Assembly: GCF_023055435.1 (NCBI RefSeq)
Contig: NW_025964361.1
Coordinates: 18,662,001-18,726,000 of the forward strand
Length of the DNA stretch: 64,000 nucleotides
Source of the DNA: Haliotis rufescens
Taxonomy: Eukaryota
Direction of reading: 5' to 3'
The notes beneath the pieces were generated by a model. The model saw only the letters and a list, made by a program, of their open reading frames with translations. It searched no databases and had not been told where the DNA came from. The position numbers and the translations under genes are program-made. Position 1 is the stretch's first letter, and each line of letters begins with the position of its first letter. Below are positions 12,530-63,790 of this stretch, piece after piece.

Positions 12530-13662
12530 ATGAGGATCATAAACCAGGGTAGTAACTCTGTTAAAATAAATCGAATTTATAACGACTGCTATATGTGTAT
12601 CAATAACTCATGTGGTGTGTAGAGCGGCATGTGTTTAGAGCGTCAGGGATATTCCCTGAAAAATATTGACATCACAAAAACAGTACCCTCTCTCACAGTT
12701 GTGCAAATCGAGCTTCATAAACCAAGGGCAGTAATTCTCTCAACATGAAAAGAAATGAAACGTGACTGTGATATGGATATATTAAACATGTGCACATTTT
12801 AACTGTAGGAGGAGTTGATTTCACAAGCTTAGTACCCTCTCTCACAATTAGGCAAATGAAGCTCTGTAAAACAGGGGCAGTAACTCTGTCAAAATTTGTC
12901 GAAATGAAACGGGACTGCGATATGCAATCATCAACATGTCGACATCTTGTGTGTAGAGTATCAGGGATATTCTCTGGAAACTGTAGGAGGAGTTGATTTC
13001 ACAAGCTTAGTACCCTCTCTCACAATTAGGCAAATGAAGATCCGTAAAACAGGGGCAGTAGCTCTGTCAAAATTAGTCGAAATGAAACGGGACTGCAATA
13101 TGCATATCATCAACATGTCGACATCTTGTGTGTAGAGTGTCAGGGATATTCTCTAAAAGCTGGAGGAGGAGTTGATTTCACAAGCTTAGTACCCTCTCTC
13201 ACAATTAGGCAAATGAAGCTCCGTAAAACAGGGGCAGTAACTCTGTCAAAATTAGTCGAAATGAAACGGGACTGCGATATGCGTATCATCAACATGTTGA
13301 CATCTTGTGTGTAGAGAGTCAGGGATATTCTCTAACAGCTGGAGGAGGAGTTGATTTCACAAGCTTAGTACCTCTCTCACAATTAGGCAAATGAAGCTCC
13401 GTAAAACAGGGGCAGTAACTCTGTCAAAATTAGTCGAAATGAAACGGGACTGCGATATGCGTATCATCAACATGTTGACATCTTGGGTGTAGAGTTTCAG
13501 GGATATTCTCTGGAAACTGCAGGAGTTGATTTCACAAGCTTAGTACCCTCTGTGGGACGGACAGACGGACGGACGGTCAGACATACGGACGGACAGACAG
13601 ACGGACAGACTGCGCCACGACATAATCCCCCTTCGGCCATTCTGGCCATGCGGGGGATAAAA
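12530..13662 (+). mobile_element. Helentron-associated non-autonomous element (HINE-like) with a 179-bp tandem array
   Basis: About 4 conserved plus 1-2 diverged 179-bp units (ggaggagttgatttcacaagcttagtaccc near 12808, 12987, 13166, 13345, 13520), then a (GACG/GACA)n microsatellite at 13555-13609 and a terminal hairpin atcccc...ggggat; this is the layout of mollusc HINE/pearl-type elements. Confidence 0.75.
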
Positions 13663-25284: not shown

Positions 25285-25715
25285 TCAGCATCAGTCCCCC
25301 CCAAGCATTGGGGTGATATGACACTATGTGAAGGAGCACCTGCATACAGCTGTAGACTCAGTGTGGTGATTGAGCATCAATCCCCCCCAAGCATTGGGGT
25401 GATATGACAGTATGTGAAGGAGCACCTGCATACAGCTGTAGACTCAGTGTGGTGATTGAGCATCAATCCCCCCCAAGCACAATCCCCCCAAGCATTGGGG
25501 TGATATGACAGTATGTGAAGGAGCACCTGCATACAGCTGTAGACTCAGTGTGGTGATTGAGCATCAGTCCCCCCCAAGCATTGGGATGATATGACGGTAT
25601 GTGAGGGAGCACCAGCATACAGCTGTAAGACTCAATGTGGTGATTGAGCATCAGTCCCCCCCCCCCCCCACCAAGCATTGGGGTGATATGACGGTATCTG
25701 AGGGAGCACCGGCAA
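25285..25715. repeat. Minisatellite, ~85-bp unit, about 5 copies
   Basis: agcatcagtccccccaagcattggggtgatatgac... recurring near 25288, 25373, 25459, 25560 and 25647, with variable poly-C length. Confidence 0.9.
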
Positions 25716-26223: not shown

Positions 26224-28677
26224 AGGGGCACTGATCTAACGCAATTCCCGGGGACTGGTTGTTGCCTTTGTTATTGTTTTTTCCCAGTGAGTACCCGGAT
26301 GTATAGCAGAAATCTAGACTAGTTCGCGACCTCTGCTGCGCCATTCGTAAGCGCATTAGTCACTTTTATGGATACCGGTAGTAATAAGGGCGTATGGTCA
26401 CATTGATCAACAAAATGAAACACAGTTTTCGAGAAAATAAGGAAATGTAGGTATCTTTGTGCGTAGCATCGGTAATGGTGACGAAGTTTTGATAAGTCAC
26501 TTGCTTGGTAATTTTGCGATTTTCGTTTACACTATTTTGACTTGCAACACAAAGCAAATATTTCATCTGAGCATTGCTTTTTTTATAGTGTGTATATTTT
26601 TTTTCTGTCAAAATGTGTAACATATTTATTAAACGTCTAAATATTCAGTTATTTTACAAAATGACTGAAAAACATTTCCATCTGTATTATTATGATAACG
26701 AATTCCAAACATTTTGATGTTTAATGTCATCACGAAGAGACTGAAAATGTTACGTTGAAAAGTACATTTCTATGTTGTTTGGCTTCTAATCCTACATAAT
26801 AATCTGTTGTGATGTTTGTAGGCCCATTTGATCGTCTTAATCAATCTGAACAGATTTTTTAGTCAAAATGACTGAAATATTTACACATTTTATAAATTGC
26901 CTGAGAGAATCACATTTTACCAATTGACGGTAATATATACACGCTTACAAAGGAAAAGACCTGTGAAAACGACGTCTATCGCGCATTGAAGAATTTCCCA
27001 ACCAAGACGTAGAGAAACAAGAACGAATCGGTTCAAATGAAGGAAAACAAAATGCAAATACCATAATTACAACCTACCAAATTTAAGTGTATAAATTTTA
27101 GGCAGGTTCCTTGTTCGAGGAATGTATCCGTGAATATCCACACAAAGGAATAATATCCCACTCGTCTGCAGCTATACAAAGAAACTTATTCGATGTCACG
27201 TGTCTCTGTAACAATCAAATATTCTAAAAGATATATATCGTTTCGGGATATTATAACCCGTGTTCATTTCTCAACTGATCACTTGGATTGTTTCAGGTGT
27301 TTCACATAGATGTCAAGTCTCAAGGGTCGGCTGAGAAAGGCCACGTGACAACTTTTTTCATAACGTCCACGGTTCCTAAAAAATCCATTGAGTGATAGAT
27401 AACAATGATCAATCAATCAACGTATTATCAGTTAACCCTTTGAACAAAGTATGTTGTTTTTACATCGGCACGTCACGCCATGATATGAGTGTATTCCCTT
27501 TGTTTTAGTAAACCTGTAAACACTCACTTTTGACATATCCACTGTGCAAGATAACAGTGATTAATCAATCAACATATTTTCTGTTAATCCTTTGATGACT
27601 AGGAACGATCCGTTGATTTACAAAAAAAAGTAAATCAACTGATCATTCATCTCTTGCTGGGCTGCCACGTGCATATTACATAACACACATTTCACCTCAC
27701 TTCAAACCTGGATTTAGATTGAATAATTACCCCAGACACAATAAATGCCAAATGGGAACCTTGTCAGGTAATCTAAGTGGTGCTACCACTAATTCTACTT
27801 GTAATAAATTCATTAACTGAGCATCAAGTGAATGACGACAAATACACAAGTGTAGGGTTATACGAGATAACGTGGATGACAACAAGGGAGTAGTAATCGT
27901 ATTATCGACGCAATCCGGAATCCGAAAATGCTTTCACTGCATGGATACTTTTTTTAGTATCAAACTATAACCATCTGGGGTATTTCCAAATGATGACATC
28001 CGATGAGCTCTGCCGTTCTTTTTGTCTGTTTGTTTAGGCTGAAGAAATGAATTAACATGCGCCCTTTGTCGAAATCTTTATAGATCACAGTTAACCAATC
28101 AGTGTTTATGCAAAAATGCGTAAAACAAATATGCCAAATGGGAACCTTGTCAGGTAATCTAAGTGGTGCTACCACTAATTCTACTTGTAATAAATTCATT
28201 AACTGAGCATCAAGTGAATGACGACAAATACACAAGTGTAGGGTTATACGAGATAACGTGGATGACAACAAGGGAGTAGTAATCGTATTATCGACGCAAT
28301 CCGGAATCCGAAAATGCTTTCACTGCATGGATACTTTTTTTAGTATCAAACTATAACCATCTGGGGTATTTCCAAATGATGACATCCGATGAGCTCTGCC
28401 GTTCTTTTTGTCTGTTTGTTTAGGCTGAAGAAATGAATTAACATGCGCCCTTTGTCGAAATCTTTATAGATCACAGTTAACCAATCAGTGTTTATGCAAA
28501 AATGCGTAAAACAAATATTGCCTCCAGCCTCCAAGTTTATTTAGCTGTCCTTGCAGACGGTAGCCCAGTCTCTGGTCACGCTCAGTTGCGTTGCGTATCA
28601 TCCGGGTACTCACGGGGGGAAAAAACAATAACAAAGGCAACAACCGGTCCGGGGAATTGCGTTAGATCAGTGCCCCT
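26224..28677. mobile_element. Non-autonomous Kolobok-type element (TTAA TSD)
   Basis: ~75-bp TIRs aggggcactgatctaacgcaattccc / gggaattgcgttagatcagtgcccct; TTAA at 26220-26223 and 28678-28681; purine-purine termini. Confidence 0.8.
27745..28516. repeat. Apparently perfect 386-bp tandem duplication
   Basis: 27745-28130 repeats at 28131-28516; I found no mismatch by eye. Confidence 0.9.
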
Positions 28678-29499: not shown

Positions 29500-32400
29500 G
29501 ACTACTTTTATTACTACGGAATGTCGGGAATCCCAATATATTACAGTTGATGGAATTTCCTTTCTCCTCACATGTATTGTCATGCACAGGGCATTTAGCA
29601 AAATTCATGCATATTCATTGTCCAAACTACCCTTTGAGACGGCCAAGAAAGAATGAAACAGCAGAAGTGCAGGCTCACTCGCTTGTTTTTTATGCAAGCA
29701 TGGGTTCCACAAATTCAATGTCTTCAGGTCATTCCTCACCTGCATTTTTCCAACTGTGTCTTCCCCTTCTCAGGGAACTAATGTTTGAATCTGGTGGTAA
29801 CTGAACATGTCATTTGAAACAGCCGCCTTCTCACGGACATTTTTGTTCCGGTTTGTTACAGTCTGAGTGTTGCAGTTCTTCTCTCCTATTGCCTTAATTG
29901 ACAGATCCTGGCTGGATGTTGCGTAAATAAAATCTAGTGAAGGTATTGTGTGAACCCCATTGGCATCCAGCTATGACTTTTCAATGAACACGGATGACCA
30001 GGACGTCAGACTCAGATTTCATTGCCAGAGCTAGAATCCATAGTAGGAGGAGTATCTTGTTCTTGCTGATAACTTGTTGCTATGGTAGTCTTAAGTCATC
30101 TAGCAACCGTAGCTTTAGTGATATCTTTATCTGAGTGGGTCTTGCACGAGATGAAGAGACATCCTCGATGTCAGCGATGTGGATCAGTGGCTGTCAGGTA
30201 GAACTTATAGGGCAAAGGAGGCGATCAGGATGATCCACTGTAGGTGCCAAGGCAGGAATAGTATAATGTCTGTGACCCAATGGACCAGTAGCTGTGGACT
30301 AATTCTTGGCTATAAAGTCGGGTAAGGACCGCAAGGTGATGGAGGTCCAGTTGGGAGCATGAATGAAAATGGAATAGTCGAGAGCGTGGAGTTCAGATAC
30401 TTAAGCTGCGGTAGCCACGGCTAGAAAAAATGCTGCTTTACGGGATTTTTGGAGGAGAGTAGCGTTTCCAAGAGGTTCTTATGGAGCGGCTAATAGAGCA
30501 GACAGGACGACTGATAAATCGGACTGACAAAGACCGGAAGTTGATGGTTGAGACAGGTCGCAAAGAGGTCCAAATGCGGTGTGTCCTAAACAGAGGTTAT
30601 CCAATTAAAGACGTCTGGGTGAAAGAGCCTACTCCATGGGTACGATACTCACTCTCCAGGATAAGCTGTCCGCTAGTGTGTTCAGTTTGCTTGGAATATG
30701 TCTCGCTTCCATCCGGCAGTTGAATGAGTCGGCCAAGGTAAATAGCTGAGTAGTTTCCGTCATCTGTTAACGGGACTTGGTTCCGCCCTGTCTCTGAATG
30801 TAGGCCACCACTGTTGTGTTGTCTGTGGCAATCAGAACGGAAGATTTGATAAGACGATTTTCCAAGTCTGTAGAGCATAATGGATTACTTTCATCTCTCT
30901 GCAGTTTATGTGTATAGCTGTTTCCGTCTCGGTCCATAAACGCTGAACTTGGAGGTCGTCCATGTGAGCTCTCCAACCTGATTCTGAGGCATCTGTGAAC
31001 AGGTGTTGTTCGGGAGCTGGTAAGGTGAGAGGAATCCCTGACATGACAAGATCTCGTTGAGTCCACCAGATTAGATCTTGACGTAGGTGGAGAGGTATGA
31101 GTACCTGTGTATCCAAGATAGTAGGGAATTGATCCAATTCTGCAGTGGGCGTGATTATCATATCTTGTAAAGAGGACAGCATTCCCATTAGAGACATCCA
31201 CCATCTGATCGATGTGCATCCAATTTTCGGGGTATGACAAAAGACGCCCTTCCATCGGGCCCTGAGAAGGCTGAATGGAGGAAGTCGTGTATCATAATCT
31301 GTAGACAAAGCCTGTTCGATTGGATCTGCGACGTTTGGAGGGGGAAGAAACAAGTCATCTTCTGTCCCACAACCTCCGGACTTGAAACCTCTATGGCCTG
31401 ATCCACGGCCTTTGGAGTCTGAGTTAGGAAAAGAGTCTGTCGATGGGTTGTCATAACGCCCGGATGCCTTGTAGGATTCCTTTCCTGACGGGATGTACTT
31501 CTTATGAGGCAGTTTGTGAAAGGAGGAATCCCTGGCCAGTTCCCATGATCGTTTAGATCTGAGATCCATGCACCTTGACTGCCAAGTTGATTGTAGAGAC
31601 TTGGAATCTTTCTGTCGTGTCTTGTCGGACTTCATCCAAGATCATGCCCAGTTTGTTCTTAAACAAAGTTGATGATGTAACAGGCTGTGACATAACTGTC
31701 TGTTTAGCATGCTTGGAGACGGCCCGAGATCTGACTTGAGACAGGAGTTGTTGTCGCTGAAGCCATAGAAGCTGGGAGGGAGTCCAAACTTGTGTGGATA
31801 ACATGTCCCCTTGCATGCGGATGATCGCATCCAGCAAGCTGTAGATAAGTCCCACTTGTTCCGTTTGGATGGTTTCTCCCGGGACATAATCAAAGGACAT
31901 TGGTAGAGGCGGCATCGCGTCACGAATTCCGGCGATGAACCAATTCAGGTAAGTGCCAATGTCCATAGAGTACATGTTGACGGTATATAGGTCCTTGACT
32001 CAGCCAGCCGGGAGAGAGAGTTTGGTGTTAGGGGTCGTTCATCTGGTCAAGGATCCTGGGGTATAACTTGGCCACAGTAGTGTACAGTGGATATGAGTTG
32101 TTTATGAAGAAGCATGGCATCCAACAGTGTGGGAGTCATGCGGTGACCGGCTCAATCTGGTAACGGTAGATGTGGCTTCAGGTCGGCCCGTGTGGTCCGT
32201 GCGGGAGCCGTACGGGATCTTCAGTGGCTTAGTTGGTCGGCTCTGAGGGGGTAAGGCGTGCTTGCCACTACCCTACTGTTCATCAGGAAGTCGTGATCTG
32301 GACGTGCTGGTTGTCGTTGCGGATGACTTAGGCTCAGTAGACTACTTTGGCCGGGGAAGACTTCTGGGCCTGCAATTTCTTCAGTTTGTCTTCTTCCAAA

Positions 32401-48099: not shown

Positions 48100-51000
48100 T
48101 GGGTGTAGAGTTTATTTCCTCCAAGTTTCAGGCCATACATTATATCAATAAAGTGTATGCATAAATACATGAAAGGAATATCATACATAAATAATATATC
48201 AGTGAATTGTGAGTGACTCGCGTAATCTAAAAGCGTGGTAGATATATTTAGCAAGTTGTGTAATAGTGTATTTACATTTGGAAGACATAAGATTTACAAA
48301 TTTTTCATATGATGGATTAGTGTGAAAATATGTATCAATAAAATGTAAACGTAATGTTGAAAATGAAATTCAAATAAGAAGGAAATGATATTCATTTTCA
48401 GTGTAGATGAAGTCCAATTTTTGACATTGTGGGCAAAATCTTTTGTTTTCTTCTATATTGGTATGACGTCCAGTTTCGATCATAAGTTTATGGCAGCTGC
48501 ATCGGAATCTTGTTAGAGTTTCTTTATAGATCTTCTTGTTTACTTCCTGAAGGTTCATTTCTATTGTTAATACCGATTTGAAAGTTAAATATGTTTTAAG
48601 TTTTGATTTTTGAAATAGGTTTTCAATCCAACGTTATTAACCACAGTCCACGATACGTTGTTTGAATTGTGAAATGAATATTTGCGGATCTCCAATATCT
48701 TGAATTATCCAGGCTTAGCCAAATCCATACTTGAAAAGAATGTTTTTTATATATGTTGCCCAGGATATACGGCCAGCTTCATCTAATTTGTACATCATTA
48801 AATACGTTTGCTTCGGTAGACGATCAGTGTTCATAGAGATTAATTTTGTCAAGTATTTAATACATTTACTAATATAATACACATATAATCGTTGTCTTCC
48901 AGTTTCACCAAGAACAGCGTCATAGCTTGCATTATTTGGTAGGTTAAGAATCCGTTTGTAATATTTAGTCTGTACCATCTCTATAGTTTCGTAGTATTGG
49001 AACCCCCAAACTTAAGAGCCATATATCAATATTGGTAAAACCATGGATTCGAACATCTTGATTGCAGTAGTGGTTGGTAATCCTCCACATAGATAGTTTA
49101 TTTTATAGATATAATGACATACTTTTTCTGCTTGTTGTGCAAGTGTTGCCGTTGCTTTTGTCCATAGCAATTTAGGAGTGAAAAATAGTCCCAAATATTT
49201 ATAAGATGAAACAGTCTCTATCTTTTCTTCTCTGTAAGTCCAATTTTCATAGTTCCTTAAACGTCCACCATTTCTAAAAACGATTATCTTTGATTTGTTC
49301 ATATTTAGAGACAGTCCCCATTTTTTACAAAATTCACTTATACAGTTGATCTGTTGTTGTAATCTTCCAGTGGTATCGGCAGTGTTGGCAACATCATCGG
49401 CTTATAATAAAGAACAAATATTTGGTGCTTCTTCTGAGATGAATATTCCACGACAGTCAGATTGATTTAGTTCCTGACCAATTCATTTATAAACAGGCAA
49501 AAGAGTGTCGGGCTGATCATGCATCCTTGTCGCGTTCCAATAAAACAGTTAAAATATTCAGTTAAACCGTTATCAGTTCTCACACAAGCTTTTAATACGA
49601 ATACATATCTCGTAGAATTTTTAGAACGTTTCCATGGATACCATATTTCATAAGCCGATGCCAAAGCAAGTTATGGTGAACACAGTCAAACGCTTTACTG
49701 AAGTCAATGAAGAGACAATAAAATCTCCCACCGGTTGATTTTGATAGATATTTCTGTATCATTCCATACAATGTGAAAATACTGTCGACTGTTGAGCGTC
49801 CTTTTCTAAAACCAAACTGGTTTTCATATATTATATTATTGTCATCACACCATAGCTGTAGGCGTTCGTTGATAATTTTTGTGAATATTTTCCCCAAAAC
49901 AGGTAATAAAGAAATACCTCTTTAATTATTCACACTGTTCGTATCTCCATCTTTATACAGCGGACATATAACTGCTCTGCACCATGATTCCGGATAAACA
50001 CCTGATTTCATTATCTCGTTAAACAGTTGCACACATATAGGAACAAAGAATTCCCATCACATCCTGGTGCTTTATTTGATTTCATGTTAATAATGGCTGT
50101 CTTCACTTCATCACTTGATATCTCTCTGTTTACATCTTCAGGCGATCCACGTTCACAAGCCTCACATACATCATTGTCATGCTGTGATATGTCTGATTTT
50201 ACTAAATCTTCAATAGATGACTTCGAACTGGGAGAATTTAATAGATTCTGGAAATATGAAAACCATCCCCAAGAACTGATCCTGTTTGTTTTCCTGCAAC
50301 ATTTTATTTTCTTGATTTCCTTCCACAGTTTGTTATAATCACTTTTTATCTCATTAAATCTATCTCTGAGTGAACGCTGAAATTCATCTTGTTTCCGTTT
50401 GCATAATTCTTTAAAGGTTCGTCTGTGCTGTTTATATACTTGGTAATCTTCATCTCTATCCGTGTCTCTGAATCTATCCAGTGCAAAATACTTCTCCCAC
50501 TTCACTCTATCACACTCTGCGTCCCACCATGCAGGCGGTTTGTAGGAGTTCTGCGCTTTTGGTCACGTGATCCCTGTCGCCTGCTCATCGCAGCAGCAGC
50601 TCTCGTGTACAGTCCGCATATGAGATCCACAGCGCTGTCTATATTCACAGAGATAGCTTCTTTGATATCATTTATAATGTTCGAAGAGGTTTCATCATGA
50701 AGTAAATCATTAAAACTGATAGCGTGATCTTTATTCCTAACTTATAATAGACGAACTTATCAACATGGTTATCAGTGTCTTCTAGGTTTTTGTTGTTTTT
50801 AATATCACAAATGAGAGGAAAATGGTCAGACTTATCCCACTCCAATATCTTGAATTGTTCAATATATGCAAACATGGTTGACGATGTAATGAGGTAGTCC
50901 ACAACACTAAGACCATTATTTGCAGTACAGGTATATTCTCCCTTTTGATCCCCTGAAGTTCTTCCATTAACAATATGTATTGAATAGCTCTTACATATGT

Positions 51001-51430
51001 TGAGTAGTTTCCTTCCAAAATTATTAACTTGTTTGTCTTTATTCAAACGTGGTGAGGAGAAGATGTCACTAACATACCAGGCACTACAGCCATCAGGCAG
51101 ATAATCAGCACTGTCATCTGATATAAAATCCTCTTTTTCGCCTGATCTGCTGTTAAAATCACCTGTTATCAGAATTTCTGCATCATATTATTTCACACAA
51201 AGCATCTTCAAGTTTATCTAAACTGTTGCCTTCCATATCCATGTAATAAGATGAGTGCTCTGGTGAAATCTTTATATAAGTTTTTATATATGTAGGTTTA
51301 CGAAAGCAGACAGAATACACCCATGTCTGGGCGTGAAGTGCCATTGTAAAAACAACATACTTTGTTCAAAGGATTAGCCGATAATTACTCATTGTTATCT
51401 ATATAACTATATGGATTTTTTTAAAGAACC
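48100..51430 (-). mobile_element. Decayed LINE ORF2 (RTEX-like): APE endonuclease, RT and C-terminal zinc finger
   Basis: ITGDFNSR, SVVDY, SDH, KAPGCDG, QFGFRKGRSTVD, FIDFSKAFD, GTRQGCMISP; YADD is mutated to *ADD; FRCSCHKLMIETGRH...CPQC...EYHF; AATAAA at the 3' end. Confidence 0.92.
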
Positions 51431-51890: not shown

Positions 51891-52272
51891 ACTACATGTA
51901 GAACCCTGACCAAGGAACCCATCTGCCCAGTACTTTGGACTTATAGCTTTGATCATAGTCAGTGCCAATTATATAGCTGGCTTCCATTTGTCCATTGCTA
52001 TTTTTTTCCATTCGGTGAAGGCAGCAGCACATAAATTGAATGGTAAACCCTTTTCTATCGTGGAGCAATTTCCTGAAGAGGTGAGCCAGTATAGGCGAGA
52101 AGTGCTAATGCCATTTTTGAGAGAGGCTTGACAGAAGGGTAAGCAAGCTTACATTGTGGTTGATAAGCTGTACATCAACAGAGTGCTTCAGGACGTTCAC
52201 ACCCCACCACCCTACAGGACACCCCGCAAGCAATCTGGTCAAGCATAGGAATGGGACGGTGGACACGAGTTC

Positions 52273-54281
52273 ATGAGTGACTATTTTAGTATTTTTCACA
52301 CCCCATGCTTACAAGACTCTGATCCTGGTATAGACTTTAGCCCCTGGGGTAAAAAGTCTAGACACAGCAATAGGGCTAAACTTTCAGAACAATCTGATAA
52401 CTCAGCTGCCTCTGCTGTTCACAACATAACTTTATTTATTAATAACTCATGTACTGACAACTATAATCCTCTTGGTGTTTCAGGTCTACCTAAGGATTGC
52501 CCGTCTGTTGATGATGTGGTGAAAATTGACCCTCTTATACCATCGTCTGATGTAAAAATAGGTACAGTTACTCTCACCCAAACTGATAATTTTTCAGAAA
52601 AATCTCCTTTTCATATGTGTGGGGCTCCAAATGATCACCCCCAAACAACTGACTGCATGAACAAGCAAGTAAATAACAAGGACAATGATCTTGCTAAATA
52701 TAATAATATTGCAAAAAATTGTAATGCAGAAAGTGAATCTCCCCCAGGAGATTATACTAGTGATAATAGTCACTCTATTTTATCATCCTCTGATGTTACA
52801 AATGGCACAGTCACTATCACCCAAAATAATGTACTTGCAACAAAATCTACATTTTATATGTCTGAGTTTCCTACTGATCACCCCCAAACAATTGATTGCA
52901 TAAACAAGCAGATAAATAATAGGGCCAATGATATTGCTAAACATAATAACATTGCAGGCAATTGTATTCCAGAATGTGATTATTCCCCAGAAAAAAACAC
53001 TGTTAATAAAAGTAAAACTATTGAAGCAAATCAGGCTGATGAGGTTGATGATGACATGTTGAAATGTGACTCTAATACACCATGCCCTGTCGTTACATAT
53101 GACACAGTCAATCTTATCCAAAATAATTTATTTCAAACAACTTCTATTTTTCAGATGTCTAAGGCTCCCACTGAACACGCCCAAACAATTGGCTGCATAA
53201 ACAAGCATGTAAATAATAGGTCCAATGATATTGATAAACATAATAACATGGTAGAGAATTGTATTCCAGAAAGTGAATCTATCCTAGGAGATAATACCCG
53301 TGGAAATGGCAATACTAATTATGCAAACCAGGCTGATGTTAATGCCGATGGAGATGATAATGATGATGAGGATGATGTTGATGAGGATGTTGATGATGTT
53401 GATGATGATATGTTGAAATGTGACTCTAATATACCATCCCCTGATGTTAAAATTGACCCAGTCAATCCTATCCAAAATAATTTATTACAAACAAAATCTA
53501 TTTTTAATAAGTCTGAACCTCTCACTGAACACATCCAAAAAATTGATTGCATAAACGAACAGATAAATAATAGGGCCAATGATATTGCTAAACATAATAA
53601 CATTGCAGAGAATTCTATTCCAGAATGCGATTATTCCCCAGGAGAAAACATTGACAATAATAGTAATACAAATTATACAAATCAGGTTGATGACGACGAT
53701 GATGATGATGATGATGATGATGTGGTGAAATGTGACTCTATTTTATCATCCTCTGATGTTACAAATGGCACAGTCACCCTCATCCAAAATAATGTACTTG
53801 CAACAAAATCTACATTTTATATGTCTGGGGTTCCTACTGATCACCCCCAAACAATTGATTGCATAAACAAACAGATACATAATAGGGCAAATGATATTGC
53901 TAAACATAATAACATTGCAGAGAATTGTATTCCAGACTCTGAAGTTTCTCCAGGAGAAAACACTGGTAATACCAGTAATACAAATGATGCATATCTTGTT
54001 GATGTTGATGACGATGTGGTGAAATGTGACTCTATTTTATCGTCCCTTGATGCTACAAATTGCACAGTCTCTCAAATCAAAAATAATTTACTTGATACAA
54101 AATACTCTTCCCATATGTCTGAGGTTCCTTCCGATCACCCCCCAAATAATAGGGCCAATGCTATTGCTAAACATATTAACATTGCAGAGAATTGTATTCC
54201 AGAGAGTGAATCTTCCCGAGGAGACAATTCTGGTGATAACGATAATACTAATGATGCAAATCAGGTTGATGATGACGGAGG

Positions 54282-54321
<40 letters not shown>

Positions 54322-57300
54322 ACAGAAAGTGATCATGCTGATGACCCTAAAATTAGAAATGATATTATTATAAATAAGTTAAAATTCCTAAGCTTAAATG
54401 TGTGTGGACTTAGAAAACGATTAGGGTACAAAGAATTTAATACCTTGCTCAAAAGTAGAGACATAATAGGCCTTCAAGAAACAAAAACTGATTCCTTGGA
54501 TGACTTACAAATTGACGGATATACTCTATTTCTCCAAAATAGATCAGGAGCCCTGAGAAAATCAGGGGGATTAGGTATAGCAATTAGAAATAAATATGTA
54601 AACTATATCACTCCTACTGAGGTAAAGTGTGAGCATATTCAATGGATTAAAATTTGCAGAAAATTATTTAACTTGGACCAAGACTTCTACTTAGGCAATG
54701 CCTACATCCCGCCCGAGGGGTCAAAATATGTTACTGCTGATACGTTCTTTGAAATAGAAAAATCTATACTTGAGGTATTCTCAAATAGTGATTATGTTAC
54801 AATCATCGGTGATTTTAATGCAAGAACAAGTGATTTATGTGATTATAATGTTTTTGATGAATATATAATTGATGAATTTGATCTAGATGTAAATGAGATA
54901 AGAAAAGAAATTGAGCCTGAATCTATACTGGATGACTTGAATTTGCCAAGGGTGAGGGGCACGCAGGATAGATTCAAGATAAATAACTTCGGGAATAAAC
55001 TGATTGATATCTGTAAAAATCTGAATTTATTTATAGGAAATGGACGACTGGGTACGGATAGACTTATTGAAAAAACAACATGTAAGGACAAAACTGTAAT
55101 TGATTATGTCATTGCTTCTCCAATGTGCCTACCCCTCTTTATAACATTTGATATACAGGAGTTCTCTCCCCTTTTCTCGGATGTACATTGTCCACTCACA
55201 TTCTCTCTGACTGTGTCAATACCTAACTTAGAAAACCTGGAACCCCTTCAACCGAATAACATACATAAGGTATTGGATAAACCAAAACGTTACGACAGCA
55301 ACAAAACTGACTTATTTCGCCAAAACATAAATATTGAACAAATAAATAAACTCACCCAACTAGCCCACGCAGCGCGTATCCAACAATGTGACCCAGTTTC
55401 CGTAAACAATCTCGGAGACAGCATAGCGCGTGTGCTAACTGACGCTGCACGTGCGGCATTTGGTGTAAGAAGCTGTAGTGGGGAAGCTGTGTTACGTAGT
55501 AAAACTGATAAACCATGGTTCGGAAATGAATTCAAAAAGGCAAGAAAAATGTTTAACAAAGCCAAACGTCGTTTTAGGAAACATAATACAGTAAAAAATA
55601 AAAGTGTTTACCGACAGCATTCGAAAGCTTATAAACAATGCATGGACAAACATATACGAAATTATAATAACCAACTGACCGAAGCTTTTCGCAAAAATAT
55701 CAAACAATCGCCAAAAGATTTTTGGAAAATACTAAATAAACAACGTACATCAGAAAAGAAAAATATACCGGATATTACTATCTTTTTTGAATTTTTCAAA
55801 AAGATAAACCAGAACCCTAAACAAGATGAAGATGATTTTAATGAACATATTTTAGACGGGAATGTAAGTGACTGCAGTATTTTAAATGATGATATCAATA
55901 CCGATGAAATTTTAAAGGCAGCAAAGAAACTTAAACGGAACAAAGCAGCAAGTCTAGATAACGTAGAAAACGACTATATCATTGACAGTGTCGATTTATT
56001 AGCCCCTTTATATACTGAATTCTTTAATTTAGTACTCGCCTCTAGTATTATCCCTGAATCATGGTTAACAGGAATAATAAAACCAATTTACAAACAGAAA
56101 GGTGACCCATCTGACCCAAATTCGTATAGACCGATAACACTGCTGAGTTGCTTTGGTAAGTTGTTTACAAGTATTCTAAATGACCGACTAAAACTCTTTT
56201 TAGAAGAAAACGATCTTATAACATCAGGGCAAGCTGGCTTCAGAAAGAATTTTTCAACGGCAGATAATGTATTTGTTATTCATATGTTAACACAGATATT
56301 AAAAACCAAAAAGAAAAAACTCTACTGTGCCTTTATAGACTTCACAAAAGCATTTGACACTGTCTGGAGAACTGGTCTTTGGACTAAAATGTTAAAAACA
56401 GGCATAAAAGGAAGATTCTTCAATTTGGTTAAAAATATGTATATGAACATAAAATCATTGGTAAAATCAAATGATACATTATCTGAGTATTTTCCATGTG
56501 AATCAGGCGTACGACAAGGGGAAAATCTGTCCCCCCTTTTGTTTTCAATCTTTCTCAATGACCTGGAAACCTTTTTAATCGACAACGAATGCGAAGGAAT
56601 AAGTATCGATTGCTTAACGGATAATGAAGCCCAGGTCTGGATACATTTGATAGTACTCCTATATGCAGACGACTCTGTACTTTTTAGCGAAACCCCCAAA
56701 GGTCTACAAAACTCATTAGATGTGTTTCATGTGATTGTATAAGGTGGAGACTAAACGTAAATATATCAAAAACCAAGGTTTTAATTTTTGGAGGAGGTCC
56801 GGCTAAATCTTCCAAAAATATATTTTTTTTATATAAACGGCCTCTGGAAATAGTTGATACATATACATACCTAGGAATAAAATTCCATAGAAACAGAAGA
56901 TTTGTTATGGGAATAAAAGCTCTGATTGAAAGTGCAACGAAAGCGATGTGCTACCTATTAAAAAGAGCTAGAAATGTAAATCTACCACTCGATTGTCTCC
57001 TAACTGCTTTTGATATTATGGTTGCTCCAATCCTTTTATATTGTTCAGATGTATGGGGGTTTGAAAATTTAGAAGTAATAGAAAAAACACACTTAAAATT
57101 CTTGAAACTTGCAGCCGGATTAAGAAACTCAACGCCAAATTATATGGTATATGGAGAACTTAACAGGGAACCAATATATATTAAACTGTTTAAACGTATA
57201 ATAGCTTATTGGCACAAATTGACCTGCCAAAATGGCATAAATAAAATATCACACTTTCTGTACCGCTACATTATTTCTAAGTCTGAGAATAACAAAACTA

Positions 57301-57851
57301 ATTTTCCATGGATTGTGTGTGTTCAAAAGATACTAAATGACGTCGGACTAAGTGAAATATTTCATAAACCATATATATGCTCTACAAATTGGCTAGTTTC
57401 AACGGTCGAACAGATACTTAGGGATCAGTTTATGCAAAAGTGGAGGGAAAGTATGGAGTCGAGTCCAAAGGGTATATATTATAAACACTATAAGCAAAAC
57501 CCAAAATTTGAAAACTATCTGTTACTCCCTAAAGGCAACTATATGCCGATATTAAAATTTTGTACCTCAAATCACGATTTGCCCGTTGAGACTGGCCGAT
57601 GGCAGAATATACCAAAAGAAGATAGACTTTGTCAACTTTGTGATTCACTCTCGGTTGGAGATGAGTTTCACTATCTCTTCAGATGCGAAGCTCTACTCCA
57701 ACAAAGAATTCGGTATATTCCCAAAAAATACTACTTGTGGCCAAATATTTTTAAACTCTGTAAAACTGTTTCACCCAAAAGGCTTAAAGATATAAGAAAT
57801 TTGTCCAGATATATTGTATGTCTATGCAAGTTATTAAGAAAGAACCGTTGA
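52273..57851 (+). CDS. LINE ORF2: repeat extension, APE endonuclease, RT, CCHC; one frameshift near 56732
   Basis: SLNVCGL, LQETK, IGDFNAR, VIDY, SDVH; YRPITLL, QAGFR, FIDFTKAFD, GVRQGENLSP, LLYADD; after a -1 shift the frame stays open (WRLNVNISKTK) through ETGRW..CQLC..DEFHYLFRC. Confidence 0.9.
52505..54320 (+). repeat. Six in-frame ~260-350-bp coding tandem repeats with (GAT)n tracts
   Basis: Unit ~SSDV..TV..IQNN...S..PTDHPQTIDCINKQINNRANDIAKHNNIAENCIPE...poly-D..KCD repeated six times. Confidence 0.92.
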
Positions 57852-58315
57852 CCCTGTCACTTGTCATGTTGATATCTTTTTGTATCTTCATATGTATATA
57901 TATATAGCTGTAAACGCTCATGTACCACCGGTGGTGGTTTCTTTGAGAAATAAACTGAATCTGAATCTGAATCTATAACATATATCAGTGCTTATTACCC
58001 CCGGCCTCCCATTTGGCCATTGTCCATTGCCAATCAGTGATAATTTAAGTCCTGGCTTCCAGTTGTCCATTAGAATCAACTATAAGCGCATATTTACTGT
58101 TAAGTTTTGGCTTCCATTTGTCTATTGCTAATCACCTGTCAGCGCAAATTAGCTGTTTGCTTCCCTTGTTAAGTTTCCACCTTTGTCATCTTATTACTTT
58201 TGCTGTTCTTACAGGTACATATATATGTTCTCTGCCTCATAGTATTTACCGAGTGCGAAATAGCCAGAGGCTGAAGCGCTCGTCAAATCTCCAAATATCT
58301 CTCATAGTATTTATT

Positions 58316-58353: not shown

Positions 58354-59939
58354 GTTCCTCATAAAAAAGAAGTTGACATCGCTAAATTCTCTTCCTTATG
58401 TGTATCACTTCTAAATGCCTTTCAAAGACTTGAACAGATAACTTATGTGTATAGTACTGAGTCTGGCGAGTTAGTTACTCTGTGAGGAGTTACAATATTA
58501 TATAGCAGTTGCTTTCATAGTTTATATCAATCTACAAATAAAATGACAAATGTAAAGTTAAAAAAAATGATATTCTTGGTTCTCAGGCACCGCCCACATC
58601 ATCATAATGTCCACCTAACATTTCCTTAATATTTCCATTTTCAAAAAAATCAAAAAATCCTAATACTTAAAAACAATTATATCCAATATAGCACATAGTT
58701 ACTTCCCTTTACGTGCGCACTGCTTTAATGCACATCTCGTGTTATGGTCATGGCAGCCATTTGACTTTGTATGCTTGTATATGTAGGGAGGCTCTTTCCC
58801 AGGTTGATGGTACACAACTGTTTATTTGGTTACATACTAGTTTGAACAAGCAAAAAAAAAAACAGCCAGCCCACCCGCACTTTATTTTCCAAAGTCATTG
58901 CCTGAGAACCAATTCTTTTATTTTAAGCCTAACGTATTATGATTTAATTAGATCAACAACTTCACAGAGAGTAGATAATACATAAAATATTATTTTTAGG
59001 CAGGATTCGTGGAAGAAGATTATTAAGAATAATTTATTACGAGTTGGATTAATGGCGTTTTTAAGAGTATTCCAGTTATATCATGGCATGTCAGCTTGAT
59101 GAGTAAGGAAAACTTGAAGTGATGCAGGTTTCAGACATGTATCACTCCGGTGAAACCCACCAGCACGGGTATGGTGCTGACAACACTGGAAACACAATCG
59201 GGTCGAATCATAAGTTATATATTTCAAAATCTGACATCAATCAAAACTATGACCCTAAGACCTATGACTCCCTATAGCACAGCTAAGGGGCATAATGACC
59301 CCCAGTTTTGCGAGGCTAGGGCAACCCGTGTGGTTACCAGCTTGTCCTAGTAGAACATGATGATTGTGTTTCTCTGGATGCTGTCCTAAAGTCTGTCCAC
59401 ACACAGGGAATTGGTATTTAAGTTGGATGTGTCCACTTGCTGCCGACAAATGATCTCCATTTTTCCTACAAGAAAGAAGAAATTGTCCCCACTAACTTTG
59501 AGTTGACTGTTGACAGCCTCATTCCACATACGAAATTTCAGCACAAATGCAGGTGAGGTTTCTGCAACTTGTCATTTGGTTCTTGAGAGCTCAGTAATTG
59601 CCTTAAATAAATATCCGCACATATAGAACCAAGTCTTGTTTCATGCTGCCATCAGATCATTGGCTGTGTTCTATAGTTGATATGAATTGTGTACAAATAT
59701 CATGAACCAGTTCATCTGACAAACACTGATTACATGTGGACATTCCAGTCACTCTTGTGTATCTAATTTTATTAGATGATGCAGTGTGTCGCAGAAATCA
59801 GTGTCTGTTCTCACTTTGTGAAACTGCGCCCACATCTCCTCTCTGCTTGTAACAATGGTGCTGCTTTTCCCAAAACCGGAAAATAAAATGTAGGTGTCAG
59901 GTGACTAGGCATGACTCTGAATCGGAAAGAGAACTAGCA

Positions 59940-62900
59940 ATGTCACACATTTTTCCCCCACTTGCCAGATCCGACTTTTGTATTTCATTCTGAGCTAATG
60001 CATTTAAAGAATTGTGGACACTCCAGTAACGCAATTGAGACGGCGGACAAGAATCTACAGGATCTTCATGGTGATAAAACTGTGGGACATTCGGTGCACA
60101 AGTTTCACAGTAAGCCATCAGCACAATGTACCATAGACCAGAGGCATCATGTTGGATCTGGAAATAACAAACCTTGTTTTAGATGTGGAAAAACTACTCA
60201 TGCTCCACATATGTGTTTTTATAAGAATGAGAAGTGTCATAAATGTGGAAAATGTAGCCATATTGTAAGAGTTTGCAGGTCAGAAGAATCAATTCCTCAG
60301 AAACAGAATTCTACGGCTAAATTCAAGGGATGACAGAAAGTTAATGCTTTAGTGAGTGAGGTGAACTCCTGTGGCCCAGGTAACAGCAGTATTAGTGTGG
60401 AAGACTTGTTTGAGAACTCGCAAATTCATGTTAGCCTTCAGCTAAAGGTGACCGTAACTACCCAAACCCCTACTACATAACAGTGGATGTTAATGGCACA
60501 CCAGTGATTTTTGAGGTTGACATTGTGAATGAGCAGACGGCTCAAAGAATTGGTCTTCAGTCATCAACGTTGTACACATCACAACTACCCCTGTGAAGTC
60601 ATACAGGACAGGAAGTTGATTTGAACAGTTATACTACTGTGGAAGTATCTTACCAGGAGAGATCTTACTCCTTACCGATTTCCCTAGCCATGGGTAATGG
60701 TTCCAATCTTCTAGGTCGTACATGGGTACAGCCTTTGAACTTTGACCTGAGGGATGTTTCGGTGAACCTAATGAAATCTACAGATTTGACACTTCATGAT
60801 GCTCTTGAAAGACACTCAGCTGTTTTTGAGGAAGGTCTTGGAACACTTAAGGGATTCCATGCTCACATCTATGTGGATAAAGATGCAACTCCGAAGTTTT
60901 TCAAACCAAGATCTGTGCCATATGCATTACGTCAGAAGATAGAAGTTGAACTTGGTCGCTTGCTGAGTGAAGGCATTATTGAACCAGTCAAGCATTCTGA
61001 GTGGGCGTGTCCCATTGTGCCAGTCCTTAAACCTGATTCTTCTGCCAGGATTTGTGGAGATTTTAAACTGACAATGAATCAGTTTTCAAAATTGGAGCAA
61101 TATCCAATACCGACATTGGAAGATTTGTGCACGAAGCTATCTGGAGGTGTAAAGTTCACCAAACTTGACATGAATCATGTGTATCAACAGTTAGTCTTGG
61201 ATGAAGAATCCCGAAAGTATGTCATGATTAACACTCACAAAGGACTCTTTAAGTACACAAGATTGCCATTTGGAGTATCTTCGGCACCCGCTCTCTTTCA
61301 ACGTATGATTGAAAGTATTCTACAGGGACTCAATTTCTCAGAAGGTTATCTCGACGAATTCATAAAGTCTGGAATCGACGACAGTGAGCATCCTCGTATT
61401 CTGAATGAAGTAATTCATCAATTGTCAGAAGCAGGATTACGTTTGAGAAGAAACAAGTGTGTCTTTATGGCTGATGAAGTTGAATATCTTGGCTATAGAC
61501 TGGACAGCGAAGGTTTGCATCCAGTGGAGAAAAAGATTGCTGCAATTCAGGAAGCTAAGGTCCCTGAAAATGTGAAGGAATTGAGAGCTTATCTTGGTAT
61601 TCTGAACCACTACTACAGATTTCTTCCAAATTTGCCTGACACTCTCTCCCCCTTGTACAAGTTGCTATAAAATGAAGTGAAATGGTCATGGAGTACATCT
61701 CAACAAAAAGCTTTTGAGAAGTCGAAGAACTTGCTTCAGTCTTCAGATGTCTTGATTCATTTTGACAGCTCCAAACCACTTTTATTGCAGTGTGATGCAT
61801 CTCCCTAAGGAGTAGGTGTTGTGTTGGCTCACCAACTGCTTGATGGTTCGGAGAGAACTATAAGTTTTGCTTCAAGGACACTGACTAAGGCGGAGCAGAA
61901 TTATTCTCAGCTTGATCGCAAAGGACTGAGTGTGATCTTTGGACTGCGAAAGTTTCATAGGTATGTTTATGGACGTCATTTCCAGATCGTGACAGATCAC
62001 AAGCTGTTGGTGTCATTATTCAATGAGAATAATCCAGTGCCCCAGATAGTGTCTCCAAGAGTTCAGAGATGGTCAGTATTGTTGACTGCATATGACTATA
62101 AAATTGTACACAGGAAAGGTACACAGCATACCAATGCAGACGCATTGAGCAGGTTGCCAGCACCTGACTCAGGGAAGCCTATGGAAGAAGTGAGAGTCTT
62201 AATGCTTCAGGAATTGGACACATGCCCTCTGAAGTCTACAGACATAAGTATCCAGACTGGCAAGGACCGAACATTATCTATTGTTCTAGAATTTGTGATC
62301 CGAGGTTGGCCGCAGCGTGACAAGTTGGATGCCCACTATGAGCCGTACTACAGAGTTCGTTCTGAAATCAGTGTGATGGATAGATGCTTATTGAGAGGTT
62401 CGAGGGTCATCATTCAATTGAAACACAGGTCTGTCATATCGTCAGAGTTGCACCAGTCCCCTCCAGGAATCCCCAGGATGAAGGGCTTGGCCCGAAGCTA
62501 TGTTTGGTTGCCGCATCTAGATGCTGACATAGAAACAACAGTAAACAGTTGTGATTCCTGCCAGGAAGACAGGAATTGTCCAAGTGTGGTCCTCTACATC
62601 CTTGGGAGTATCCTTCTCAACCTTGGCAAAGACATTGGTAGCATGTTGTAACTAATAATGCTACAGCTTTTGTTGGGGAAGAATTTGCTACATTCATGTC
62701 CAGGAATGGAGTTGAACATGTGACAACATACCCTCATCACCCGGCTGGGAACAGTTTAGCAGAAAGGGCGGTTCAAATAATAACAGATGGCTTAAAAAAG
62801 ACAACTGGTGACATAGTTGCAACTCAACAACATAGGTTCCTATTTTCTTATAGAATTTCACCACAGTCTACAACTGGTGTATCACCTTCAATGTTGTTTC

Positions 62901-63790
62901 TTGGATGCAGATTGCGTTTGCGATTGGACTTGATGTTTCCAAACCTTACGTCAAAGGTGAAAAAGAACTAGAGAAAACTTGTGGATCAGTCAGCTCTAAC
63001 GAAATGTAGGGCATTCAAAGTGAATGACTCGGTGTGGGTTAAGAACTTTGCTTCAGGTCCAAAATGGATTAGTGGACAAGTTGATAGTTTAAGTGGTCCA
63101 TTGTCGTACATCATCAAGTTAACGGATGGAAGATTGGTCAGAAGGCATGTGGATCATGTCTTTATCTTCACCCCCAAGGGACGTGACTGAACGTTCAGAT
63201 ACTCCGGTAGAATCGCAGTCTTCACGAAGAATAGGAGTATGAATCAGACTTACCTGACACATCACAGGTAGATTCCCATGAGGAAAGTATCTCAGGGGAT
63301 GTTTCAAGTGTACCAGATATGTCTGAACCAGGGGAGGAAATGCCGGTAGTGACATCGCCTGTAGCGCCCATGCTTCTTCATTCAACGAGAGTGAAGCAGC
63401 AACCGTCTTATCTGAGAGACTTTGAGTCAAAGTGGCATTTGAGTGAACTGTGACTGTCATTTGAAGTGAACTATGTGTCAAGGTGGCATTTGATTTAGCT
63501 GTGAATTACAGTGACTAGTATCAGGACTATAATACTTCAACAGATTATCAGTATTATTATGTGTCTAAAAAAACTTAACTTAACAATGTTTTCATTATGA
63601 CTGTAACTTGTCAAGTTATCAGGGTTTTAGTACTTTACAAGGACCAGTGTTAAGTTACTTATGTGTCATTGTTAAGTTACTTATACTTTATGGAGACCCG
63701 TGGACTATGTTGTTATCAAAGGTTATATATTTGTTTCAAAGTAACTTAAATTTAGGAGGGGCGGATGTAATATCTGTAATTGAAACACAG
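59940..63790 (+). mobile_element. Gypsy/Ty3 LTR retrotransposon (Mag-like), decayed
   Basis: Two gag zinc knuckles (CFRCG..H..C, CHKCG..H..C), protease VDVNGTPVIFEVD, RT (WACPIVPV, RICGDFK, RLPFGVSSAP, YLDE), RNase H (CDAS, NYSQLD, TDHK, NADALSR), integrase (LARSYVW, GNSLAERAV); PPT ggaggggcgga at 63755-63765, then TGTAAT start of the 3' LTR at 63766. Confidence 0.93.

Follow-up and report, generated by a model that had tools for sequence, protein, structure and literature searches.

The translation of the second open reading frame (ORF2) of long interspersed nuclear elements (LINEs) is poorly settled beyond mammals and silkworm. For mammalian LINE-1 (L1), termination followed by reinitiation across a 63-nucleotide spacer has been proposed, and for SART1 a downstream element has been implicated (passages of PMC5972666), while readthrough of a stop codon has already been suggested for the Group 3 non-long terminal repeat (non-LTR) retrotransposons of Paramecium (Guerin et al., 2017; PMC5405496). 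In the gag-pol of Moloney murine leukemia virus (MoMLV) the signal reads UAG GGR NGU CAG and is followed by a spacer and a pseudoknot, and stop contexts of the Beier-Grimm type III have been defined (PMC13517186). Among molluscan LINEs, RTE-X and Proto2 have been reported (PMC10294476; PMC11203168). Here we analyze a stretch of 64,000 nucleotides from Haliotis rufescens (GCF_023055435.1, contig NW_025964361.1, positions 18,662,001 to 18,726,000 of the forward strand; hereafter the window), which carries a LINE with six tandem repeats ahead of its endonuclease. The reading that we favor, with moderate confidence and on the strength of sequence comparisons, is that these repeats are a tandem expansion within an acidic, in-frame linker of free length, across which an ORF1-ORF2 fusion would be produced by readthrough of the TAG stop codon of ORF1.

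An in-frame ORF1 stop ahead of the repeat array

A frame on the plus strand of the window is open from 52249 to 56742 (1497 codons from stop to stop). Its first ATG lies at 52273, from where a first-pass annotation of this DNA had read ORF2 as bearing a long N-terminal extension. However, the frame opens eight codons earlier, directly after a TAG (52246-52248) that closes, in the same frame, the 3' remnant of ORF1 (52010-52245). This remnant begins where the match to sister copies begins, holds one premature TGA, and is matched by a profile of 13 ORF1 ends from the same genome; the profile in turn retrieves human LINE-1 ORF1p (PDB 2ykp, E 9e-9), identifying an L1-type ORF1 of the coiled coil, RNA-recognition motif and C-terminal domain organization, and one of the 13 ends weakly matches Pfam Transposase_22. 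Because the end of ORF1 lies upstream, in frame and closed by the TAG, the extension takes up everything from the ORF1 stop to the endonuclease; this in-frame stop, overlooked in the first-pass annotation, explains the layout. The region begins with a unique, open 5' part (52249-52515), which holds the non-conserved ATG 52273, and continues with six diverged tandem units (52516-54369; unit lengths of 255-354 bases), an acidic and stop-free linker with variable poly-Asp. All units lie on the plus strand, at 52516-52770 (85 residues), 52771-53055 (95), 53056-53409 (118), 53410-53721 (104), 53722-54015 (98) and 54016-54369 (118, including the tail). The apurinic/apyrimidinic (AP)-type endonuclease domain of ORF2 occupies 54370-55170 on the same strand (Pfam PF03372, E 2.3e-6), with the Pfam match beginning at residue 7 of the stretch from 54370, directly behind the units.

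The predicted readthrough site (52246-52265, plus strand) consists of the TAG and a conserved 3' context, with G at +4, a purine at +5 and a G-rich stretch from +10 to +17. TAG-GAA is kept in all nine family copies that cover the junction, namely the window and eight of the 15 projected sister loci (the other seven do not extend over it). The codon at 52273, by contrast, is ATG in four of these nine, ACG in four older copies and AAG in one, and is thus not a conserved start. Contigs guessed to be RNA, though possibly DNA and so no ground for a claim of expression, extend over the junction and over parts of the array; among the runs listed as carrying the sequence, none is recorded as RNA, and a single small-RNA run gave no reads, which carries no weight as a test. 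Several sister loci (L032, L034, L035 and L037) show short tandem duplications at the end of ORF1 just ahead of the junction, adding 60 to 220 bases (20-base units in L035), and at L121 the junction itself is repeated several times.

The array keeps its frame but not its residues

The earlier observation that the frame runs open from 52273 through six acidic units to the endonuclease stands: between 52273 and 54369 it contains no stop, against 18-170 stops in each of the other five frames, and the longest open frame over 1000 base shuffles of this segment is 170 codons. The extension has a GC content of 35% and is rich in Asp (14.7%) and Asn (13.4%). The units had been called Cys-bearing; Cys makes up 3.1% of the extension, but no Cys is invariant among the six. 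Their description as a disordered acidic stretch agrees with their acidic, hydrophobic-poor composition and with a predicted model of one unit that appears unfolded (predicted local distance difference test score, pLDDT, 43.8; 6-row alignment). The proposed comparison of a unit with known families and folds yielded no credible homologue: none was present among 511 candidates, which is weak evidence, the Atlas gave no usable match, Pfam returned only a sub-threshold match to DUF7623 on the extension, and Rfam only three sub-threshold matches. Out of 1.84 billion representatives, the lone match was to a repeat protein of a trypanosomatid and was rejected as due to chance, its score being the sum of ten 27-residue stretches.

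Evolutionary rates separate the frame from the residues it encodes. Between units, the ratio of nonsynonymous to synonymous rates (dN/dS) ranges from 0.67 to 1.28 over 15 pairs, or about 0.9 (98 codon columns filled in at least five units; pooled pN 0.223, pS 0.241), which is near neutral, and the differences are evenly spread over the three codon positions (299/323/290). No nonsense change is seen on the unit tree, against 7.1 expected from about 226 substitutions (P about 8e-4). Among shared-derived changes, defined as those common to at least two older copies, the synonymous to nonsynonymous counts are 1:9 in the unique part of the linker, 35:13 in the endonuclease, which is thus under purifying selection, 17:13 in the reverse transcriptase (RT) and 20:36 in the middle region, with the contrast between linker and endonuclease being significant (p 3.6e-4). 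Over 2180 codons, the array of the four closest sisters has acquired no new stop. Of their 12 array indels, 10 are multiples of three, as opposed to 1 of 22 elsewhere in ORF2, although this difference is partly mechanical, in that the loss of units and GAT slippage both change the length by multiples of three and 4 of those 22 reflect the deletion in the window copy itself. Because nonsense changes are missing while dN/dS is near neutral, codon positions change evenly and shared-derived changes run 1:9, we conclude that protection extends to the frame but not to the residues. The suggestion of selection on a translated domain therefore survives with respect to the frame, but not with respect to a domain with a specific sequence. 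Neither purifying selection nor a confident fold nor homologues elsewhere, as would mark a conserved folded repeat domain, were found; the array is an in-place, frame-constrained expansion and not a new domain.

That the array grew in place follows from complete sister linkers, which hold two (L038), five (L032, L034) or six (window, L031) units. The repeat number thus varies between copies, as had been anticipated, and the capture of a host repeat, then offered as an alternative, is not borne out. In all, the array was found at 17 places, and 15 of the 16 other loci with a unit also hold further parts of the element. A single unit is seen only in the fragments L039 and L046, neither of which is a complete linker, and accordingly no one-unit ancestor is claimed. 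The array is frameshifted in L032, L034 and L035, but there the enzyme part is broken too; the combination of a broken array with an intact enzyme part, named earlier as the case that would speak against selection, was not seen among the sisters examined, none of which has a fully intact enzyme part.

The junction across related families

Protein searches in the same genome led to 107 examined stretches (including the window), 72 distinct places with an ORF1 end and 25 families with a readable junction, each represented by its best copy. The ORF1 stop is TAG in 24 of these 25 families; G occupies +4 in 22, a purine +5 in 24 and G +16 in 21, and the nine bases upstream of the stop are unconserved (at most 0.34 bits). 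The one TGA family (L073, L090, L095) nevertheless retains this downstream context, as GGA CAC GAC GGT GGT in three of three copies. The endonuclease is in frame with the ORF1 stop in 23 of the 25 families, that is in all 23 that are readable (L061 and L084 being too broken), with no second stop before it in 21 and no Met in 16 of the 23, over linkers of 12 to 711 codons. Without selection of copies, the endonuclease match is in phase at 38 of 49 TAG places. As a control, ORF2 ends in TAG in only one of eight families versus 24 of 25 for ORF1 (Fisher p 1.4e-5, with families that are not independent). The families are deeply diverged, with a median identity of 30% over the first 60 residues of the endonuclease (23 rows). 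Beyond this genome, a contig from another collection (L161) shows TAG GGG TGT, a Met-free linker of seven codons and then the endonuclease. L160 was rejected as a second such case: it holds an ORF1 relative, but with a TGA and a long closed spacer, which is a different layout. Both are animal LINE sequences inside contigs filed under bacterial assemblies and likely reflect host contamination. Another 23 metagenome loci, considered as relatives, resemble bacterial exonuclease III and none matches the ORF1 profile; a scan of viral sequences found nothing.

The linkers of related families share a composition rather than a sequence. Each of the 13 examined has a net acidity (+0.03 to +0.24, versus -0.06 to -0.10 in base shuffles) and fewer hydrophobic residues than the shuffled sequences. 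The shuffled-base null is lenient, a point against our reading, but weak selection on linker composition (acidic, with few hydrophobic residues) rather than on sequence is likely. In a tree of the endonuclease, the window's subgroup contributes seven rows whose linkers have at least 40 codons, and these group as a single clade (96/96). Inside this clade, a sister family (58% endonuclease identity) carries upstream of the endonuclease an in-frame, acidic 39-base (13-residue) repeat of variable copy number, with 4 to 31 pattern matches in six loci (L047, L048, L049, L054, L055 and L057), and at L047 the frame stays open for 1157 codons from the endonuclease onward. In a further sister family (L051, L052, L053), the long linker is rich in Asn and Asp and contains a separate, diverged duplication of about 350 bases. 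Both repeats are unrelated to the window's unit, which shows homology to the sister-family linkers in none of eight loci.

Proposed readthrough and its alternatives

If the TAG is read through, most ribosomes would stop there and release ORF1p, and a minority would continue to make an ORF1-linker-ORF2 protein. ORF2p would be reachable only through the linker, and therefore duplications that keep the frame and bring in no stop would be tolerated, letting the length drift between 12 and 711 codons. Tolerance of any frame-keeping acidic change would account for both the array and its neutral decay, with selection on composition likely keeping the linker soluble and disordered. More speculatively, the fused ORF1 part might join ORF1p trimers on its own RNA and tether the enzyme there. 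A wider proposal is that a whole clade of mollusc LINEs uses a Gag-Pol-like UAG readthrough with a short primary motif (G at +4 and G-rich to +17) and no local RNA structure, and that its acidic tether of about 12-700 residues has undergone unrelated repeat expansions at least three times; this we advance tentatively, with somewhat less than even confidence.

Several points weigh against the predicted readthrough. Local folding at the junctions gave a mean z near 0 in all 24 settings of the folding window, a crude pseudoknot scan, confined to short-range pairing, found two in 26 versus 3.2 expected, and the type III readthrough context is described as weak without a stimulatory structure (passages of PMC13517186). 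The window's hexamer, UAGGAA, lies outside the type III list (UAGGGV/UAGGUA/UAGGAU), strict matches to which occur in nine of the 25 families and in L161. Hence, although the layout, in which one UAG separates two ORFs of the same frame, is that of type III, we do not class the junction as such, because the hexamer test failed in the window family and no structure was found. A purine after the stop usually favors efficient termination. The survey has its own exceptions: one family has TGA-GGA and two have TAG-A, the endonuclease is out of phase at 11 of the 49 TAG places, and seven further places, mostly frameshifted copies, have other stops. Moreover, the families were grouped by junction similarity and by hand and share ancestry, L131 was counted though its junction is uncertain while L128 was dropped for having none, and with L160 set aside L161 is the only junction of this kind from outside the genome.

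The main rival is full termination at the TAG with reinitiation close behind it, whether at ATG 52273, at the ACG of older copies or at some other non-AUG codon, the array then being a neutral N-terminal tail of a free ORF2p that is kept open for the same reason. We regard this as unlikely, though serious. It accounts equally well for the open frame and the neutral sequence, has the SART1 and L1 precedents, and sits well with the failure of the folding and pseudoknot scans to find a stimulator of readthrough. Further in its favor, and thus against readthrough, four of five copies of the young subfamily have an in-frame ATG eight codons past the stop, four older copies have the near-cognate ACG, and two contigs guessed to be RNA, which may be DNA, list no change at the junction or the ATG; reinitiation may therefore apply to the window family. 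In another family, three of five copies are in frame and an ATG right behind the stop (TAGgATG, in the +1 frame) hits a stop after 21 codons, but in the other two the loss of two bases brings this ATG into the frame of the endonuclease. Reinitiation, however, requires neither the same frame nor a particular stop, and yet every readable family is in phase and all but one of the 25 have TAG; no Met precedes the endonuclease in 16 of 23 families, and the ATG is confined to the young subfamily, in a weak context (T at -3, A at +4). It leaves the fixed phase and the identity of the stop unexplained.

The remaining explanations are less probable still. A functional domain selected for a particular sequence, in one of the roles named in the first-pass annotation (chaperone, DNA mimic or tether), would fit the kept frame, the acidic, hydrophobic-poor composition that recurs in the 13 linkers and the growth of the array within the family, where younger copies carry more units; but the near-neutral dN/dS, the even codon positions, the 1:9 ratio in the unique part, the missing homology to sister-family linkers, the low pLDDT (44) with no credible homologue, and active-looking relatives that have linkers of 12-25 codons make it improbable. 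The apparently neutral amino-acid change is what one would expect of an untranslated spacer or captured host satellite open by chance, and in-frame indels prove little here, since unit deletions and (GAT)n slippage are inherently multiples of three. This explanation is nonetheless largely refuted, and very improbable in our view, by the missing nonsense changes (0 versus 7.1), the single open frame out of six, the element parts at nearly all other loci with a unit and the existence of a complete two-unit linker (L038). Least probable of all, the TAG|G would be a 3' splice acceptor, with splicing connecting an upstream start to the base past the ORF1 stop in the RNA that yields ORF2. TAG|G fits the acceptor consensus, and splicing would account for both the AG and the G as well as for the phase and the lack of a Met. 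There is, however, no pyrimidine tract (T 14% and pyrimidines 41% at -20 to -2), a competing AG occurs within the preceding 15 bases in 21 of the 25 families, one family has TGA, and conservation lies downstream rather than upstream; the contigs over the junction also show no joint, though they may be DNA or unspliced RNA.

Other features of the element and the window

With an AP endonuclease followed by an RT in ORF2, and dispersed, 5'-cut copies with short-repeat 3' tails, the element is a LINE. The RT domain lies at 56104-56727 (Pfam PF00078, E 6.7e-31) and the C-terminal part of ORF2, with a Cys/His motif common to related families and a TGA end, at 56731-57851 (within the ORF 56688-57851). 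In the 3' untranslated region (UTR; 57852-57974), a short inverted motif that is conserved precedes AATAAA and a tail of (CTGAAT)n, and similar motifs and short-repeat tails occur in related families; the RT domain, the C-terminal part and the UTR are all on the plus strand. The inverted motif, GTACCACC ... GGTGGT (57922-57939), stands shortly ahead of AATAAA and the tail both here and in the 3' UTRs of related families, and likely forms a recognition stem-loop for the RT. The window copy is dead: it is cut at 52010 inside ORF1 and lacks a base that its sisters have in the RT near 56730. No target-site duplication is evident at this copy. The nearest named protein matches of ORF2 are from Patella, Mytilus and Mizuhopecten, and in a protein collection, homologues of the endonuclease are annotated with N-terminal extensions that range from 2 to 257 residues. 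The element may belong to RTEX or Proto2, of the RTE superfamily; the C-terminal Cys/His motif and the short-repeat tail fit RTEX.

Upstream of the element and head to head with it, an older, broken AP endonuclease-RT LINE of related type lies on the minus strand (48226-51430). Downstream, at 59938-63505 on the plus strand, are broken pieces resembling the pol gene of an LTR retrotransposon (frames recognized by eye as protease/RT, RNase H and integrase-like). Elsewhere in the window we noted two exact head-to-tail copies of 386 bases (27745-28518; 100% match), reflecting either a recent duplication or an assembly artefact, tandem arrays at 12801-13551 (period of 178 bases) and 25287-25714 (period of 86-101 bases), and a 269-codon open frame rich in Ser, Lys and Arg on the minus strand (30835-31641).

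Comparison with known systems

More interesting than the array is the clade-wide TAG-G junction with its length-free acidic linker. The array itself is a caution that selection on frame and composition, rather than the gain of a new domain, can lie behind a long run of open repeats in a retroelement. Within the clade, a single junction exists in about two dozen natural versions, most of them Met-free, which can separate readthrough from reinitiation. Should readthrough be true, it would set the ratio of ORF1p to ORF2p, predict a covalent ORF1-ORF2 protein in animal LINEs and point to a UAG readthrough signal that possibly works without a pseudoknot. The covalent tie of the enzyme to ORF1p trimers would, moreover, give a physical basis for its action on the element's own RNA.

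No description of TAG readthrough or of a repeat linker in mollusc LINEs was found in the literature searched, which left Repbase reports and most supplements out of its scope. The passages on mollusc RTEX and Proto2 mention neither, and nothing on such a junction appears in the relevant passages of PMC5009743, PMC11203168 (including a search of its supplement), PMC3905857 and PMC10294476. The Paramecium Group 3 elements, as described in the pertinent passages (PMC5405496), belong to a ciliate clade and have a zinc-finger ORF1, in contrast to the animal host, L1-type ORF1, TAG-G context and linker of 12-711 codons seen here; those passages offer no analysis of stop context or linker for comparison. 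With mammalian LINE-1 the Haliotis element shares a homologous ORF1 (PDB 2ykp), an AP endonuclease-RT ORF2 (PDB 8sxt, E 3e-21) and a short inter-ORF region, and differs from it in that termination-reinitiation is the mechanism proposed for L1 ORF2 (PMC5972666). The similarity of its RT to that of L1 is no higher than to that of R2, and membership in the L1 clade is therefore not shown.

The gag-pol of MoMLV differs in having a pseudoknot, of which none was found by our scans, and in belonging to a virus; the element in the window has the hexamer UAGGAA and encodes no protease, and a fusion would therefore not be cut by an enzyme of its own. In both cases, however, the structural and enzyme genes occupy one frame split by a UAG, which is followed by G and a purine-rich stretch, and some of the families here come near UAG GGR NGU CAG, as in TAG GGA AGT CAA and TAG GGA TGT CAA.

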